A DNA stretch of 12,387 nt from Deltaproteobacteria bacterium (GCA_012514925.1 JAAYZI010000029.1:1-12387); one strand, 5' to 3'. Positions 1,622 through 8,152 are shown, counted from the stretch's first letter. The notes: generated from the sequence alone by a model not told the origin. Translations and numbers: made by a program.

Positions 1622-1906
1622 ATGAATGAGCAAAAGAACGACGAGGATACCGTAGGTACCGACCTTTCAACCGTTAGAGAGGAAATTAATCGCATTGATC
1701 GCGAACTGCTGAGGCTCCTCTCTGAGAGACGGGCGTGCAGTAGCAAAGCAGTGCAAGTAAAGGAGCTTGTACATAGCCCCATCCGGGACCGGGGACGTGA
1801 AGAACAGTTGCTTTTGGACCGTATCCAAATAGCTAAAAGTTTTGGGTTAGATGCCCACTACACAACCAAGGTGTTTCATCAGATTTTAGATGACTCGATC
1901 CACGCG
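1622..1906 (+). other. AroQ-class chorismate mutase domain of the fusion protein
   Basis: Helical CM signature residues (R..R, K, RDxxRE, Q) spaced as in the E. coli P-protein N-terminus. Confidence 0.75.
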
Positions 1907-3694
1907 CAGCAAGAGCACTTGCAACGCCTCGCCAATGCCGATAAGGCCGGAGATGCGCTGGTGCGGGTGGCCTTTCAAGGTATAGAAGGTTCTTTCAGCC
2001 ATATGGCGGCGCTTGAGTGCTTTAGCAGTCGCACCTCGCAGGCGGTTTACTTGGGTTGCCAGACCTTCAAGGAAGTTATGACGGCAGTGGAACAGGGACG
2101 GGCCGATTATGCCATTGTGCCTGTTGAGGATACCAGCTCAGGGGGTATTAATGAGGTCTACGATCTCTTACTGCACACACAGCTTGCAATTGTAGCTGAG
2201 AAAAAAAGCCGCGTAGTCTACTGTTTATTGGCGCTTCCTGCAGCCACGCTTAGCGGCATCAAGAAAGTCTTCTGTTCTCCGGCTGCGGCGCTTCAGTGCA
2301 GCAACTTTCTCTCTCGCCTGCCTAACTGTCACGTCGAGTACTCTACGGATGCCTCTCTTTCGGGCAAGCGCATCTCCGAAGGCTCAGACAAATCGGTAGC
2401 AGCGATTGCTAGCGAAGAGGCGGCCAGGCTCTTTGGATTGGCGGTTCTGGAACGCGGCATCACCAATCAGGAGGAGAATTACACTCGCTTTTTGATCGCC
2501 GCCAGGAAGCCGGTGAAAGTTGATCTTAGAATTCCTTGCAAAACTTCGATTGTGATATCGACCGCGCAAAAACCAGGCGCTCTGGTGGAGGCCCTTCTGG
2601 TTTTCAGGGAGAACGGCATTAATCTCACCAAACTGGAGTCTCGTCCTGTTATCGGAAATCCCTGGGAGGAGATGTTCTACGTAGATTTCGAGGGCAATCT
2701 GGAAGAGGATCGGGTCAAGTTGACTTTGGATGAGCTCACTCGCAAAGCGCGCTTTATCAAGGTGCTGGGAAGTTATCCCTGCGAAGAAGTGCCCCCCACC
2801 CAGATCTCGGCAAAGCAGAGGTTGAATTCCGGCGCGAATGCTGGCGCTGAAATTAAACCTGTGGCTAAGGCTGCGGCACCTGCCCCAAAGGTTTCCTCCA
2901 AGGCGAAGGGCTATCGCCTTGGCAGTAGGGAGTATAAGGCTGAGGATACCATTATAGATGTGCGAGGCATTAAAATAGGCGGCGGCGGTTTTGTGGTCCT
3001 GGCTGGTCCGTGCTCAGTTGAGTCTTATGATCAGGTCATGGCATGCGCACGTGAAGTTAAGGAAAACGGCGGAGTAATCCTAAGAGGTGGCTGCTTTAAG
3101 CCCAGGACTTCCCCCTACAGTTTTCAGGGCATGGGTTATGAGGGGCTGGATATCTTGGCGCAGGCTGGGCGCAAGTACGGCCTTCCGATTATAACCGAAG
3201 TGCTTTCAATCGAGGATATGGAACGAGTCGCTGAAAAGTCTGACATGATCCAGATTGGCGCGCGCAACATGCAAAATTTCACTCTGCTTAGTGAGGCCGG
3301 GCGCATGCATCGCCCGGTGCTCCTAAAGCGAGGCATGAGTTCCTCCCTGGAGGAGCTGCTGCAGGCCACGGAGTATATTTTGGCGCAAGGTAATCAGCAG
3401 GTGATCTTATGCGAGCGGGGTATTCGTACTTTTGAGACCGCCACTCGCAGCACTCTTGATCTGAGCGCCGTGCCGGTCTTAAAGGCGCGCTCGCATCTTC
3501 CGGTGATCGTGGACCCTTCGCATGCGGCAGGGGAGCGAGATCTTGTGCCGCCTCTGGCCTTAGCGGCCAAAGCGGTCGGAGCTGATGGCATTATCGTGGA
3601 GATTCATCCCGAACCTGAGAAGGCACTTAGCGACGGCCCGCAAGCATTGCGCTTTCCAGAATTCGCGGATTTAATGCTGAGGCTTTTGGCTTGA
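1622..3694 (+). CDS. pheA-aroG: Trifunctional fusion: chorismate mutase (AroQ) / prephenate dehydratase with ACT domain (P-protein, PheA) / 3-deoxy-D-arabino-heptulosonate-7-phosphate synthase class I-beta (AroG/AroA-Ibeta type)
   Basis: Single 690-aa ORF. aa 1-95 align by eye to the E. coli PheA CM domain ([19 protein letters not shown]...[12 protein letters not shown]...[18 protein letters not shown]). PDT motifs present: [15 protein letters not shown] and TRF (nt 2483-2491). ACT domain carries GALV (2576-2587) and ESRP (2636-2647). The linker [39 protein letters not shown] follows. The C-terminal about 260 aa are near-identical in motif content to T. maritima-type [17 protein letters not shown]...LAGPCSVES...[17 protein letters not shown] (3098-3130)...[11 protein letters not shown]...VLLKRGM...[11 protein letters not shown]...IVDPSH...[12 protein letters not shown]. 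Confidence 0.88.
1958..2780 (+). other. Prephenate dehydratase catalytic domain plus ACT regulatory domain of the fusion protein
   Basis: The TRF motif and the GALV/ESRP motifs are present. Confidence 0.75.
2781..2908 (+). other. Low-complexity Ala/Lys/Pro-rich interdomain linker; contains a C6 homopolymer (2789-2794) and an in-frame GAGG-TTG potential internal start
   Basis: Read directly from the translation and nucleotide sequence. No stop codon in frame. Confidence 0.55.
2909..3694 (+). other. DAHP synthase class I-beta (KDO8PS-like TIM barrel) catalytic domain of the fusion protein
   Basis: The [11 protein letters not shown] motif distinguishes DAHPS from KDO8P synthase (KANRSS in KdsA). 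Metal/PEP ligand motifs CxxE/GPC, IQIGAR, KRG, DPSH and HPEP are present. Confidence 0.85.
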
Positions 3695-4785
3695 TGCAAC
3701 AGCTTGAGATCAATATCGGCGCGGCCCAGGCAGAGACATATAAAATTTGGGTTGGCTCTGGGTTGATTTCGAAAGTGCCGGAGTTCTTCGACCTCTCGTC
3801 TTATAGCCGGGTGGCGGTGTTAAGTGATCATAATGTAGCGCCGCATTGGGGTGCCACTCTAGTTGAAGCCCTCTCGCATCGCGCCGAGCTGATTGTAATC
3901 CCCGCAGGCGAGGAGGCTAAGAACATCACCACAGTGGAGCTGGTGTGGAGGCGGCTCTTAGAAGCTGGCTGTGATCGAAAGTCTCTGGTGCTTAATTTAG
4001 GTGGAGGGGTGGTCGGTGATCTAGGAGGTTTTGCTGCGGCCAGTTATATGCGTGGTGTTGATTTTGTGCAGATACCGACCACGTTGCTTTCGCAGGTCGA
4101 CGCCAGTGTGGGCGGCAAGCTTGGCATTAACTCGGCGGGAGTAAAGAATTTAGCCGGTGTATTTAGGCAGCCGCGTGGGGTGATCATCGATACCGATACG
4201 CTTAGTACCCTGCCCAAACGGGAGCTACTTTCCGGGTTGGCCGAAGTCCTAAAGCATGGGCTTATTCGAGACGCTGATTATTTTACCCAGGTGTGTGGGC
4301 TTGGAGAAGCGGTCTTTGAGCCTAAAAATTTGGAACAGATAATCCTTCGCTCCTGCCAAATTAAGGCTGAAGTGGTGCAAGCCGATGAATTGGAGGGTGG
4401 ACTTAGAAAGATTCTAAATTTCGGACATAGCATCGGGCACGCCATCGAAATCCTATCACATGCGAGGCTTCCGGCGGAGCATCTGTTGCACGGTGAGGCA
4501 GTGTCGTTAGGCATGTTGGCCGAAGCCAAACTCTCTGAGCTTGCGGGGTTTATCAGCGCGGCCGACCTGGACCACATCCGAGCTGGTTTGCAGGGCTGTG
4601 GTCTTCCGGTCACGTTAAAGCAGCGCTTCGCTCTGGAGGATCTACTAGCCAAGCTGAAATTAGATAAGAAGAATGTAGGCGGTGTTCTTAAGTGGACATT
4701 ACTTCGCGCTTTAGGTGAGGCTGTTTTTGATGTTGAGATCTTGCCCGAGTTGGTTGAGCAGTCCCTTAGAGAGGAGTTTGCTTGA
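3694..4785 (+). CDS. aroB: 3-dehydroquinate synthase
   Basis: ATG 3694 overlaps the TGA of the upstream gene (TGATG). The ORF track offers TTG 3691 as an alternative. NAD-binding motif GGGVVGDLGGFAAASYMRGVDFVQIPTTLLSQVDASVGGKLGIN and metal-binding HGEA / FGH motifs are present. Confidence 0.9.
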   Translation: MQQLEINIGAAQAETYKIWVGSGLISKVPEFFDLSSYSRVAVLSDHNVAPHWGATLVEALSHRAELIVIPAGEEAKNITTVELVWRRLLEAGCDRKSLVLNLGGGVVGDLGGFAAASYMRGVDFVQIPTTLLSQVDASVGGKLGINSAGVKNLAGVFRQPRGVIIDTDTLSTLPKRELLSGLAEVLKHGLIRDADYFTQVCGLGEAVFEPKNLEQIILRSCQIKAEVVQADELEGGLRKILNFGHSIGHAIEILSHARLPAEHLLHGEAVSLGMLAEAKLSELAGFISAADLDHIRAGLQGCGLPVTLKQRFALEDLLAKLKLDKKNVGGVLKWTLLRALGEAVFDVEILPELVEQSLREEFA

Positions 4786-6125
4786 AGGCGGTGGAAAAAA
4801 CAGTGGAGTCAGAGCAAGGGAGCGCGCGGGTGCTGCTTACGCCGCCTAGGCACCGGATTGAAGGCGAAATTTTACTTTCCGGCTCCAAAAGCTACACCAA
4901 TCGCGCATTAATCTTAGCGGCCCTAGCCGATGGCCGAAGTGAGTTAATAAACGCCTCAAGTAGTGACGATTCTAAAGTGATGCTTTCTGCGCTTTCTAAG
5001 TTAGGAGTAAGCTTTGGATGGCGGGATGAAACGTTGTGGGTGCAGGGTTGTGGTGGGCGTTTCAAACCGTATCAGGGAGATATTGATCTTGGCCCAGCCG
5101 GCACATGCATGCGCTTTCTTACGGCGTTATGCGCTTTTGTTGAAGGCGTAGATGTTGTGCTAAGAGGCAGCAAGCGCATGCACACCCGGCCAATCGCCGA
5201 TCTGGTTGAGGGGCTTAAATCTCTGGGGGCACAGATCGAATATGTGGGGAGCTTTGGATGCCCGCCACTTAGGATCCTGGGCCGAAGTGCGCCGTCTTTG
5301 GGCAGGGTGAGTTTGAGCGGTGCTGCCAGTAGTCAATTTTTTAGCGCCCTTCTTATGGTGTCTCCTTTCTTTAAGGAGGGCTTAGAGATTGAAGTGCTGG
5401 GAGAGCAGGTTTCAAAGTCCTACATCGATATGACCGTTGCAAGTATGCGCGCCTTTGGGGTGGAGGCGCAAAATCAAGGGTACTGCCGTTACGCTGTGCC
5501 CGCGGGAGCCAGGTATCAAAGTAGGGTGCAGGTAATAGAGCCTGATGCTTCGGGAGCTTCCTACCTGTGGGGGATCGCCGCGATTTCGAGGGGGCGGGTT
5601 AAGGTTAAGAACCTCTCTTTTGGATCGGCCCAGGGGGACATAGCCTTTCCTAAGTTTCTGGAGCGAATGGGATGCCGTGTAAGCTGCTCGGCCGCATCTG
5701 AACCCGCTTGGATTGAGGTCGAGGGTCCCGCGCGGCTTATAGCGCTTGAGGCCGATATGTCATCCTGCCCGGATACGGCGCAGAGTTTAGCGGTGGTGGC
5801 AGCTATGGCTGAAGGGGAAAGTCGCATCCATGGATTGAGCACTCTGAAACATAAAGAGACCGACAGGTTGGTAGCGCTGCAGCAGGAGCTTGCGCGGGTA
5901 GGAATAACCAGTCGTGTCACTGAGAGCGAGATTTATGTGCAGGGGGGAGATCCTCACGCCGCTTCGATTAAAACTTACGACGACCATCGTATGGCGATGT
6001 CTTTTGCTATGCTTGGATCGAAGCTGGATGGGTTGGCGATAGAGTCACCTGCGGTTGTTACCAAATCGTTTCCTGACTTCTGGGAACAGTTAAGTCGGCT
6101 TGGCATAGGGGTAAGATGCGAGTAA
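4782..6125 (+). CDS. aroA: 3-phosphoshikimate 1-carboxyvinyltransferase (EPSP synthase), class I-like
   Basis: LLSGSKSYTNRALILAALADG, LGPAGTCMRFL, KETDRL and YDDHRMAMSFA motifs. Aligns along its length to E. coli AroA. The start is uncertain: TTG 4782 overlaps the aroB stop. An in-frame GTG at 4830 is preceded by AAGGGAG (4816-4822, 7-nt spacer) and gives an N-terminal length matching E. coli. Confidence 0.9.
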   Translation: MKAVEKTVESEQGSARVLLTPPRHRIEGEILLSGSKSYTNRALILAALADGRSELINASSSDDSKVMLSALSKLGVSFGWRDETLWVQGCGGRFKPYQGDIDLGPAGTCMRFLTALCAFVEGVDVVLRGSKRMHTRPIADLVEGLKSLGAQIEYVGSFGCPPLRILGRSAPSLGRVSLSGAASSQFFSALLMVSPFFKEGLEIEVLGEQVSKSYIDMTVASMRAFGVEAQNQGYCRYAVPAGARYQSRVQVIEPDASGASYLWGIAAISRGRVKVKNLSFGSAQGDIAFPKFLERMGCRVSCSAASEPAWIEVEGPARLIALEADMSSCPDTAQSLAVVAAMAEGESRIHGLSTLKHKETDRLVALQQELARVGITSRVTESEIYVQGGDPHAASIKTYDDHRMAMSFAMLGSKLDGLAIESPAVVTKSFPDFWEQLSRLGIGVRCE

Positions 6126-6625
6126 CCCTGGTAGGCTTTATGGGATGTGGTAAAAGCACAGTCGCGGCGCTGTTAGCGCGCAGACTGGGCTGGCGCTTAG
6201 TTGAGATGGATGAGTTGATCCTAAGCAACTCCGGTGAAGAGTCTATTGAAGATATTTTTCAAAAACGGGGCGAGGGGTATTTTAGAGACCTCGAGTGTGC
6301 TTGCCTTAATTCCCTGAGCAAGGAGGATAAACTGGTGGTCTCTGCCGGCGGAGGAGTGGTTATGCGCCCTGAAAACCTTGACGCTCTTAAGGCGGGTGGG
6401 GGGAAGGTTGTTTACCTAGAGACCGGTTTTGAGGAGGTTAAAAAGCGTCTGGGGGATGGCCGGGGACGGCCGCTTTTTCAGGATGTAAAGCAAGCGGAGA
6501 ACCTATACATTTTTCGTGTTCCACTTTATAAAAGATTTTGCGATGTTAAGGTAAAAAGCGAGGATAAAACTCCCGAGCAGGTCGCGCAGGAGATTCAAGT
6601 TTGGTTAGCTCAAGCCGGTAAATAA
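6116..6625 (+). CDS. aroK: Shikimate kinase
   Basis: 169 aa. P-loop VGFMGCGKSTVAALLARRLGW. The start overlaps the aroA 3' end by 10 nt. SD-like AGGGGTAAG upstream. Confidence 0.88.
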   Translation: MRVTLVGFMGCGKSTVAALLARRLGWRLVEMDELILSNSGEESIEDIFQKRGEGYFRDLECACLNSLSKEDKLVVSAGGGVVMRPENLDALKAGGGKVVYLETGFEEVKKRLGDGRGRPLFQDVKQAENLYIFRVPLYKRFCDVKVKSEDKTPEQVAQEIQVWLAQAGK

Positions 6626-6626
6626 C

Positions 6627-7463
6627 ATGCGGGTCACAGCAGAAAGTAAACTCTGTATCATCATTGGAGATCCGGTGGCGCATAGCCTTTCGCCGTTAAT
6701 ACACAACGCGGCATTCTTGGCGTGTGGTTTGGATTCTAAGTTCGCATTTATGGCTGCGCGTGTGCGAGAAGACGATCTTAAAGCCGCGATCTTCGGGCTG
6801 CGCGCGCTGGGCGCGCGCGGGGTGAGCTGCACCCAGCCTCATAAGGTTGCTGTAATGCAGTTCTTGGATGAGATCGACCATGCGGCTCGTCAGGTTGGCG
6901 CGGTCAATACAGTCGTCAACCAAGATGGCCGACTGTGCGGTTATAACACCGACACCTTGGGAGTTGTAGGGCCGCTTAAGAAGCGTACGACTCTGCGCGG
7001 AAAGAAGGTGGGGCTGATCGGTGCCGGTGGGGCCGCACGTGCGGCACTTTTCGGTCTAAAACAAGAGGGCGCAGAGGTGACCGTTTTTAACAGGTCCAAG
7101 GAGCGTGGGAAGGAGTTGGCAGATGCGGCTGGATGCGACTTTTGTCCGCTTTCTGAGTTCGGTGCGGGCTTGGGTTTTGAGATTCTTGTTAACACCACCT
7201 CACTTGGTATGTACCCGCATCCGGACGAAACGCCGCTTGCGGCTGAGCAGATTCAGGCCGGGCAAATTGTATTTGACGCTGTGTATGCGCCTTATCAGAC
7301 CAAGCTGCTTAGCATAGCCCGCAGCCGCGGAGCTGAAGTGGTGCACGGCACGGAGATGTTTATTGCGCAGGGTGCCGCTCAGTTTGAACTCTACACAGGC
7401 ATGTCCGCACCGCTAAGTGCGATGGAGCAAGCCCTGCATCTGCATTTGGGGATTAAACCGTGA
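6627..7463 (+). CDS. aroE: Shikimate 5-dehydrogenase
   Basis: IIGDPVAHSLSPLIHNAAF substrate-binding motif, NTD catalytic motif (GYNTDTLG), and GLIGAGGAARA dinucleotide-binding motif. Starts 1 nt after the aroK stop. Confidence 0.88.
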   Translation: MRVTAESKLCIIIGDPVAHSLSPLIHNAAFLACGLDSKFAFMAARVREDDLKAAIFGLRALGARGVSCTQPHKVAVMQFLDEIDHAARQVGAVNTVVNQDGRLCGYNTDTLGVVGPLKKRTTLRGKKVGLIGAGGAARAALFGLKQEGAEVTVFNRSKERGKELADAAGCDFCPLSEFGAGLGFEILVNTTSLGMYPHPDETPLAAEQIQAGQIVFDAVYAPYQTKLLSIARSRGAEVVHGTEMFIAQGAAQFELYTGMSAPLSAMEQALHLHLGIKP

Positions 7464-8152
7464 TTAACTACTGTTTACCGATTATTGAGCGCGAGGCTGA
7501 ATTTGTGCGGGAGCTGATAGACCGCAGCCGTGCCGATTATCATTTTATAGAGATCTGGCTTGACTATATTCAGGAGTTGGATCCCTTTTTTGTAGAAGAG
7601 CTTGCGGCGAGTTTAGGAAGTCGACTCATTTTTTTATTCAGACGCCAAGGGCTTGACAAAATACAGATGCCTCTTGAGAGTCGCTACCGCATTATTTACA
7701 AGATTTCGGAGAGCGCAAGTTTTTTGGACTTGGACCTTACGACTCAGGTTGAAGAGCTGGATTACATAAGAAGGGAAGGGCTTTCGCCCAAGTTAATCCT
7801 CTCCTACCACAATTACATAGAGACCCCGGATTGGCCGGTGCTACGCAAGTTGGCGGTGACGATGCGTAGGAACCGCGCCACAGTTTGTAAGGTGGCTTGT
7901 ATGTGCAACAGCCCTGAGGATGCGGTGCGTTTACTGACGTTGCAGATGGAGTTTCGGAAAAACGCTGTGCGCCACATTGTGCTTGGCATGGGAGGATATG
8001 GGGCAGTAACTCGTATCTTCGGCACTCTTTGGGGAAATGAGATGATCTTCGCTCCGTCTTCGCATCAGAGCGAATCCGCGCCGGGTCAGCTTACCCAAGG
8101 AGAGCTGGCGCAAATTTTTAAGATTCTGGAGGGGCAAAATGGGCGGAAATAG
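7460..8152 (+). CDS. aroD: 3-dehydroquinate dehydratase, type I
   Basis: 230 aa. The GTG start overlaps the aroE stop (GTGA). Type I features: LILSYHNYIETP and an active-site Lys context CKVACM (Schiff-base lysine region). Sits between aroE and aroC in the operon. Confidence 0.75.
   Translation: MINYCLPIIEREAEFVRELIDRSRADYHFIEIWLDYIQELDPFFVEELAASLGSRLIFLFRRQGLDKIQMPLESRYRIIYKISESASFLDLDLTTQVEELDYIRREGLSPKLILSYHNYIETPDWPVLRKLAVTMRRNRATVCKVACMCNSPEDAVRLLTLQMEFRKNAVRHIVLGMGGYGAVTRIFGTLWGNEMIFAPSSHQSESAPGQLTQGELAQIFKILEGQNGRK

Follow-up and report, generated by a model that had tools for sequence, protein, structure and literature searches.

A chorismate mutase-prephenate dehydratase-DAHP synthase fusion with an intact class I-beta barrel at the head of a shikimate operon

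Feedback on 3-deoxy-7-phosphoheptulonate synthase (DAHP synthase, DAHPS) is a textbook case of modular allostery, and three add-ons of the class I-beta enzymes have been dissected: a ferredoxin-like/ACT-like domain (FXD), an N-terminal chorismate mutase (CM) and a C-terminal CM. Here we analyze a 12,387-nucleotide stretch of DNA from a Deltaproteobacteria bacterium (GCA_012514925.1 JAAYZI010000029.1:1-12387, hereafter the window), in which a single gene at 1622..3694 on the + strand encodes a CM, a prephenate dehydratase (PDT), the PDT's ACT regulatory domain, a linker and a class I-beta DAHPS barrel. The product is a genuine member of a conserved aroQ-pheA-aroA(I-beta) fusion family and probably has three activities (DAHPS, CM and PDT).

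The described I-beta enzymes resemble this fusion in different ways. In Thermotoga maritima DAHPS (PDB entries 1rzm, 1vr6 and 3pg9), the domain directly N-terminal to the barrel has a ferredoxin/ACT fold and binds an aromatic amino acid; the ACT domain of the fusion is placed likewise. The T. maritima sequence match covers residues 428-686 of the window protein, and Foldseek aligns the ACT domain and the barrel in order over 380 columns. However, the fusion has the PDT's own ACT domain rather than an FXD (PF18152) and a linker of ~44 residues rather than a short one, and its add-on is a 390-residue bifunctional enzyme, whereas that of T. maritima is a domain of ~70 residues. The enzymes of Bacillus subtilis, Listeria monocytogenes and Geobacillus sp. 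(3nvt, 3tfc and 5j6f) share with the fusion an N-terminal AroQ CM and an I-beta barrel in one chain, and their barrels are 52-55% identical to that of the window protein. In this N-terminal CM-linked type the CM serves mainly as a prephenate sensor (PMC8408635). Their CM abuts the barrel, whereas ~330 residues (PDT, ACT and linker) intervene in the fusion, whose CM presumably serves the phenylalanine (Phe) branch as its working enzyme.

C-terminal CM-linked DAHPS has been characterised in Prevotella nigrescens and Porphyromonas gingivalis, and a reciprocal dependence of the DAHPS and CM activities was demonstrated in these enzymes (PMC8408635, PMC12202928). Like the fusion, they combine the first shikimate step and a branch-point enzyme, which catalyze non-consecutive reactions, in one chain; unlike it, their DAHPS precedes the CM, and they contain neither PDT nor ACT. 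An earlier reading of the window from its sequence alone (the sequence-only reading) had stated that known I-beta enzymes bear just small N-terminal add-ons. This is incomplete in view of the C-terminal CM fusions (PMC8408635, PMC12202928), and the domain order of the window protein itself was noted in 2005, when an aroQ-pheA fused to an aroA(I-beta) "pseudogene" was recorded for Shewanella oneidensis (Song, Bonner, Jensen et al. 2005, BMC Biol 3:13, PMC1173090). That remark is the sole mention of the arrangement found in a full-text literature search, which covered few subscription journals.

The fusion protein and its domains

The reading frame at 1622..3694 runs unbroken from ATG to TGA through 690 codons, according to the ORF list and the translation, and codes in order for CM, PDT, ACT, the linker and the barrel. 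The Pfam and NCBIfam domains and the continuous frame agree with the sequence-only reading that one chain joins CM-PDT-ACT to an I-beta DAHPS, with no stop or change of frame. In the protein database, the same in-frame architecture recurs in at least 118 other clusters at 90% identity, whose members have 667-714 residues, the same Pfam set, 55-72% identity to the window protein and coverage of mostly 96-100%. All four domains are strongly conserved among these 118 relatives, with a sharp drop in the linker alone; this far exceeds what a chance origin of the domain set would give. Three of the clusters have members on contigs that reach 10.4 Mb and are labelled Acidobacteriota. L001-L009 and L013, which are among the matches listed from species-representative genomes, each encode the fusion in one ORF, and single-ORF fusions occur in metagenome-assembled genomes (MAGs) of Acidimicrobiia, Melioribacter, Ignavibacteriaceae, Acidobacteriota, Holophagales, Actinomycetes and Krumholzibacteriia; this list of taxa comes from a sample of 600 stretches and is no census.

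These relatives bear on whether the fusion could be an assembly or sequencing artefact, in which neighbouring genes were joined through a missed stop or an indel. The DNA is a 12.4-kb MAG contig and contains a run of six C within the linker (at 2792-2797, and not at 2789-2794 as had been read earlier), where such an error could have arisen. We give this explanation a negligible chance: the more than 118 clusters are independent, collinear and in frame, and they come from varied assemblies and technologies, multi-megabase contigs and named species. Because the same single-ORF fusion recurs across these clusters, on contigs as long as 10.4 Mb and in MAGs of several phyla, a frameshift or missed stop is ruled out for practical purposes. 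The window protein is also present as an identical database entry (P0001), under the NCBI name [quoted passage not shown].

Profile searches of the 690-residue product with CM_2, PDT, ACT and DAHP_synth_1 matched all four, the ACT below threshold. The AroQ-type CM domain (residues 18-97, 1673..1912, + strand) scores 62 bits with Pfam CM_2 and matches PDB entry 1ecm. It narrowly passes TIGR01797 (CM_P_1, the model for P-protein CM domains), with 75.5 against a cut-off of 73.7. Residues R19, R36, K47, D56, R59, E60 and Q96 are present, and all seven are kept in 115 of the 118 relatives; we take them to be the equivalents of R11, R28, K39, D48, R51, E52 and Q88 in the active site of the E. coli CM (EcCM).

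The PDT catalytic domain (residues 116-296, 1967..2509, +) scores 173 bits with Pfam PDT and carries the TRF motif at T288-R289-F290. R289 is invariant or nearly so among the relatives, and the full triplet is found in 85 of 118. In the E. coli P-protein, the Thr of this motif is important for catalysis. It is absent from the first position in 15 of the 118 closest relatives, which have NRY (13), ARY (1) or IRY (1). We built an AlphaFold2 model of the 690-residue chain from an alignment of 118 sequences (mean pLDDT 89.3, pTM 0.84), and a TM score of 0.84 is obtained when its PDT-ACT part is superposed on 6vh5 and 2qmx, both Phe-bound PDT structures.

The ACT domain (residues 306-386, 2537..2779, +) scores 22.9 bits with Pfam ACT over residues 309-365, below the gathering score of 27; the fold and the motifs are nonetheless present. 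The model gives a beta-alpha-beta-beta-alpha-beta order (strands 306-314, 335-343, 346-357 and 376-386; helices 320-330 and 363-375). GALV (residues 319-322, nucleotides 2576-2587) and ESRP (residues 339-342, nucleotides 2636-2647) can be read straight from the DNA and are both intact, as had been claimed. G319, L321, S340 and R341 are invariant in the alignment of the 118 relatives.

The CM-PDT-ACT part therefore has to be compared with E. coli PheA, with which it shares the domain order, the AroQ active-site residues, TRF, GALV and ESRP. The window protein differs in its 300-residue C-terminal extension (linker and barrel), and the model NF007910, the equivalog of the E. coli P-protein, aligns with residues 14-393 at 390.6 and does not reach its cut-off of 577. 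The protein is P-protein-like by architecture, yet it is not an E. coli-type equivalog by the NCBI threshold. The sequence-only reading had called this part a complete E. coli-type P-protein, which stands for the architecture and motifs and fails for the type. Similarly, of its statement that the chain holds the first and the last two committed steps of Phe synthesis, the DAHPS entry step is borne out; the Phe branch begins with CM and PDT, and its last step, transamination, is absent from the chain.

The linker (residues 387-430, 2780..2911, +) comprises 44 residues between YP386 and Y431 and is rich in Ala, Lys, Pro and Ser; the composition agrees with the Ala/Lys/Pro linker noted earlier, for which a length of 40 residues had been given. 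It is the least conserved stretch of the family, with 36-58 residues (median 43) rich in A, P, S and K among the 118 relatives, and the block-mean pLDDT over residues 401-430 is 56-63.

The class I-beta DAHPS (beta/alpha)8 barrel (residues 431-690, 2912..3691, +) is matched by Pfam DAHP_synth_1 over residues 444-681 with 268 bits against a cut-off of 25.5. The I-beta-specific models TIGR01361 (DAHP_synth_Bsub; 387.6 against 267.75) and NF006421 (429 against 335) are also exceeded. A Pfam search found no DAHP_snth_FXD (PF18152) match in the window protein. The modelled barrel superposes on the DAHPS of Pyrococcus furiosus and Aeropyrum pernix (4c1k, 4c1l, 1zco and 1vs1) with a root-mean-square deviation (rmsd) of 1.4-1.5 Å over 254-261 alignment columns, a target TM score of 0.93-0.94 and 59-60% identity. 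C464, K493-P494-R495, R548, K569, H634, E660 and D671 are all present (the string CKPRRKHED). Going by the T. maritima and P. furiosus structures, we take these positions to be the Cys/His/Glu/Asp metal ligands, the KPR(T/S) motif and the Arg and Lys that bind substrate. All nine residues are intact in 116 of the 118 relatives. Judged by its residues, the protein appears complete, and it is consistent with three activities and Phe sensing.

Relatives with intact and decayed barrels

A HMMER search, exhaustive over 1.84 billion representatives, found dozens of collinear CM-PDT-ACT-barrel proteins, many of them aligned as a single stretch over residues 13-688. The same domain order occurs in hundreds of database proteins, including RefSeq and UniRef entries of named species. 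Together with the 2005 remark on Shewanella (PMC1173090), this removes the novelty that the sequence-only reading had implied: the architecture is already known, and the window protein is an ordinary further member of a family that is abundant in databases. Among named organisms, intact barrels are found in Aliikangiella maris, A. coralliicola, Iodidimonas gelatinilytica and a Melioribacteraceae bacterium. Their proteins have the architecture of the window protein and the nine DAHPS residues, and the other catalytic and sensing positions are the same or nearly so. They differ from it in phylum, sequence and context, the window copy being part of a seven-gene shikimate operon.

The names given to family members are inconsistent (for example P0001, P0002, P0028, P0346, P0365, P0485 and P0492), and each omits at least one domain. 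They include "bifunctional DAHP synthase/chorismate mutase", "chorismate mutase/prephenate dehydratase", "3-deoxy-7-phosphoheptulonate synthase", "prephenate dehydratase", "chorismate mutase" and "hypothetical protein". As a consequence of such names, pathway reconstructions miss one activity for members with intact barrels and wrongly credit DAHPS to those with degenerate ones.

Degenerate barrels are widespread in the family. Of these proteins clustered at 50% identity, 11 clusters, including that of the window protein, had intact barrels, and 44 had full-length or near-full-length barrels without the metal ligands and KPR; decayed domains diverge faster, so this count overstates the decayed share. 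Decayed barrels are found in many Shewanella and in Ferrimonas, Paraferrimonas, Agarivorans, Aliagarivorans and Alginatibacterium, and also in Corallincola, Oceanimonas, Oceanisphaera, Zobellella, Motilimonas and Celerinatantimonas. In Shewanella sediminis, the residue string is SR--KEYN-, compared with CKPRRKHED in the window protein. The Shewanella-type proteins are collinear with the window protein over the full length of CM, PDT, ACT and I-beta barrel, with identical or nearly identical CM, PDT and ACT residues, and these residues are kept alike in the named organisms with intact and with decayed barrels. In contrast to the window protein, which keeps all barrel residues and leads a shikimate operon, their barrels have lost the Cys/His/Glu/Asp ligands and KPR. 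Many lineages nevertheless retain the decayed barrel, at ~150-259 of the 259 barrel columns aligned. From the sequences, it looks as if an enzyme domain had repeatedly turned into a pseudoenzyme domain. The AlphaFold2 model of a Shewanella-type protein gives the barrel block-mean pLDDT values of mostly 87-95.

We note that the decayed barrels (P0162-P0309, P0542, P0485, P0453, P0445 and others, and L084:6001-7983) keep the core motifs GNQQ.iLCe.G.rtf, PviLeRn and shLP..vnp. The neighbourhood of L084 is E. coli-like, in the order raiA > pheA-fusion ... < tyrA < aroF, where aroF is a separate I-alpha DAHPS.

By analogy with these proteins, the barrel in the window might be a non-catalytic structural or regulatory appendage, and the actual DAHPS might be encoded elsewhere. 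The decayed type is common, as 44 of the 62 representatives at 50% identity with an intact CM-PDT portion have barrels without the catalytic set, every Shewanella, Ferrimonas and Agarivorans protein checked is of this type, and the decayed-type genome of L084 has its separate aroF. For the window protein, we consider this explanation very improbable. Its barrel keeps all nine residues and 59-60% identity to the solved archaeal enzymes, the barrels of 116 of its 118 closest relatives are intact, and its gene heads an operon with six other shikimate enzymes and no other DAHPS. The operon encodes the seven steps to chorismate and the two further steps to phenylpyruvate. Because this complete shikimate operon holds no other DAHPS, we argue that pathway entry is catalyzed by the barrel here. 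The window protein falls within the intact-barrel subfamily.

Possible coupling of the Phe sensor to the barrel

By homology to characterised P-proteins and PDTs, L-Phe would be expected to bind the ACT domain at GALV and ESRP and to inhibit PDT and CM. The ACT domain occupies the FXD position immediately before the barrel, and it may also relay Phe binding to DAHPS. Such a relay would proceed through altered packing of the P-protein module against the barrel, as with the ACT-like domain of T. maritima DAHPS, and the outcome would be a single Phe sensor that feeds back on both carbon entry and branch exit. We regard this coupled allostery, in which Phe binding to the ACT domain also gates DAHPS, as a plausible proposal with a chance somewhat below even.

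Three lines of evidence support coupling: the replacement of FXD by ACT, the confidence of the predicted packing and the persistence of dead barrels. The first comes from genomes in which the two genes are separate. pheA and I-beta aroA are often adjacent and unfused among the matches listed (L012, L020, L037, L048, L051, L063 and L075), and the DAHPS carries an N-terminal ferredoxin-like FXD (PF18152) in 7 of 7 such cases. The window-type fusion has no FXD and has the PDT's ACT domain and the linker in its place, which agrees with the sequence-only reading that the P-protein occupies the N-terminal regulatory position. As for the second, a pTM of 0.84 over 690 residues and four modules indicates a confident inter-domain arrangement in the monomer model, with the barrel confidently placed relative to the P-protein part; this predicted packing is read from the pTM alone. 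In PDB sequence and fold searches, no solved structure spans more than one module of the fusion. Lastly, dead barrels persist at or close to full length in numerous lineages, which speaks for some importance of the barrel to the P-protein part.

A wider proposal would be a fourth mode of I-beta DAHPS allostery, in which the FXD has given way to the ACT domain of a fully catalytic P-protein and one Phe sensor throttles DAHPS, CM and PDT. The coupling might then be reciprocal, the barrel being a structural or allosteric partner that the P-protein needs. This would explain why lineages that possess further DAHPS isozymes, such as Shewanella, Ferrimonas and Agarivorans, keep the barrel as a pseudoenzyme domain well beyond the decay of its active site. 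We hold this proposal to be possible and rather doubtful. If true, the family would represent a fourth add-on solution, in which a whole bifunctional enzyme brings its own sensor, and the intact and decayed barrels form a natural series for how a catalytic domain turns regulatory or structural. The interest lies in the family, chiefly in the contrast between intact and decayed barrels, and the window adds nothing beyond membership of it.

The modules could instead be beads on a string, joined when neighbouring pheA and aroA(I-beta) genes lost the stop codon that had separated them, with no effect beyond co-expression, stoichiometry or co-assembly. Phe would then regulate PDT and CM, and the barrel would be catalytically autonomous and in effect without regulation, as bare archaeal barrels are. 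The adjacent unfused pairs are frequent, and Thermoanaerobacter has them as well, listed as "pheA > aroAI-beta" (PMC1173090). Fusions exist in either order, with or without CM; the linker is variable in length (36-58 residues), unconserved, A/P/S/K-rich and low in pLDDT (56-63); and the fused reactions are non-consecutive, so that substrate channelling is no argument for a defined geometry. However, loose tethering fits poorly with the pTM of 0.84, which implies a defined arrangement supported by the alignment. It would also leave carbon entry without feedback, given the FXD in all seven unfused cases and none in the fusion, and the dead barrels kept in Shewanella, Ferrimonas, Agarivorans and others imply a non-catalytic role of the barrel. 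On balance we give this explanation a chance somewhat lower than that of coupled allostery.

Another way to control the barrel would be that of the Bacillus/Geobacillus-type enzymes. In that case the CM, and not the ACT domain, would be the sensor of DAHPS, and prephenate or chorismate in the CM site would close the CM dimer over the barrel entrance. This mechanism has been demonstrated for I-beta enzymes linked to an N-terminal CM (PMC8408635). The CM active-site residues are almost invariant in the family, and the bifunctional DAHPS/CM model NF009239 is exceeded by the window protein (391.7 bits against a cut-off of 279), with its best-scoring stretch in the barrel at residues 431-686. We find CM gating improbable in the fusion, where ~330 residues rather than a short linker separate CM and barrel. 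CM-less PDT-ACT-DAHPS fusions (L010 and L011) indicate that the CM is dispensable in such proteins, and the CM of the fusion should be the principal catalyst of this step in the Phe branch and no spare regulatory copy.

Several points weigh against coupled allostery by Phe. The reverse-order and CM-less fusions and the common unfused pairs suggest that fusion itself needs no specific allosteric geometry, and the long, low-complexity, unconserved linker is what one would expect of loosely tethered domains. The model is a monomer, while CM, PDT and DAHPS all act as oligomers, which qualifies the predicted packing. When ACT and barrel are co-aligned, the orientation of the ACT domain is unlike that of the T. 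maritima regulatory domain (rmsd 12-16 Å; 12 Å for 1rzm), and the pTM of the Shewanella-type model is only 0.54. The statement that the barrel is the single DAHPS covers the 12.4-kb contig, and a separately regulated DAHPS may exist elsewhere in the genome. Were the fusion the sole DAHPS, feedback by Phe alone would starve the synthesis of Tyr and Trp, and further effectors or incomplete inhibition would be expected. The full-text search, with its few subscription journals, found no biochemical study, activity or effector data on any CM-PDT-ACT-DAHPS protein.

Other joinings of these enzymes were observed among the matches. CM-less PDT-ACT-DAHPS fusions are encoded at L010:9884-11755 and L011:9950-11698 (MAGs of Vulcanimicrobiota and Gemmatimonadales). 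Single ORFs of the reverse order, FXD-DAHPS-PDT(-ACT), lie at L030:345-2336, L050:6846-9026, L056:2190-4124 and L058:9803-11740; their hosts are Spirochaetaceae/Spirochaetales MAGs, Ruminococcus intestinalis (L058) and a bacterial isolate bin (L056). In the reverse-order fusion, these two enzymes appear to have been joined independently, and the barrel's own regulatory domain was kept. A still larger protein, P0120 (1036 residues), has the order Aminotran_4-CM-PDT-DAHPS. At L081:9080-12082, 18 bases separate the fusion from an Aminotran_4 gene upstream of it. Before that gene stand three others, leuC/leuD/leuB-like, whose domains are Aconitase, Aconitase_C and Iso_dh; aroB and aroA lie downstream of the fusion. 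This arrangement is likely a precursor of that of P0120, which would span the entry step and all three steps of the Phe branch if its class IV aminotransferase acts on phenylpyruvate.

Shikimate operon and neighbouring genes

The fusion gene heads an operon whose rest lies at 3691-9227 on the + strand. It is followed by aroB (3-dehydroquinate synthase, 3694..4785; Pfam DHQ_synthase and DHQS_C), whose ATG overlaps the TGA of the fusion by 1 nucleotide (TGATG), and by aroA (EPSP synthase, 4782..6125; EPSP_synthase, 337 bits), whose start overlaps the aroB stop. Next come aroK (shikimate kinase, 6116..6625; SKI, 140 bits), aroE (shikimate dehydrogenase, 6627..7463; Shikimate_dh_N, SDH_C and Shikimate_DH), aroD (type I 3-dehydroquinase, 7460..8152; DHquinase_I, 110 bits) and, as the last gene, aroC (chorismate synthase, 8139..9227; Chorismate_synt, 468 bits), all on the + strand. 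Stop and start overlap at five of the six junctions, and aroK and aroE are 1 base apart; the operon is tightly and translationally coupled. This context is not general in the family, as parts of it are common to L001 and L081 only and most relatives stand in unrelated surroundings.

A leader peptide, attenuator or riboswitch before the operon (1480-1621) was considered and rejected. No Rfam element was found in the whole window at gathering thresholds, and the sole small ORF upstream, MGLPHKV, contains no Phe and is thus no Phe-rich leader. A consensus scan found no sigma-70-like promoter upstream (1480-1621) and terminator-like sites at chance level only.

Beyond the operon, the - strand encodes two proteins with repeats. 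The gene at 10570-12369 encodes a flagellin with Flagellin_N and Flagellin_C ends, in which ~400 residues of FG-GAP/VCBS-like repeats replace the variable middle (Pfam). Its N-terminal match begins at profile position 59, which suggests that the listed GTG start may be wrong. Adjoining the flagellin gene, the gene at 9482-10213 encodes a predicted secreted protein of ~243 residues with collagen-like G-x-y triplets, matched by Pfam Collagen in two stretches.

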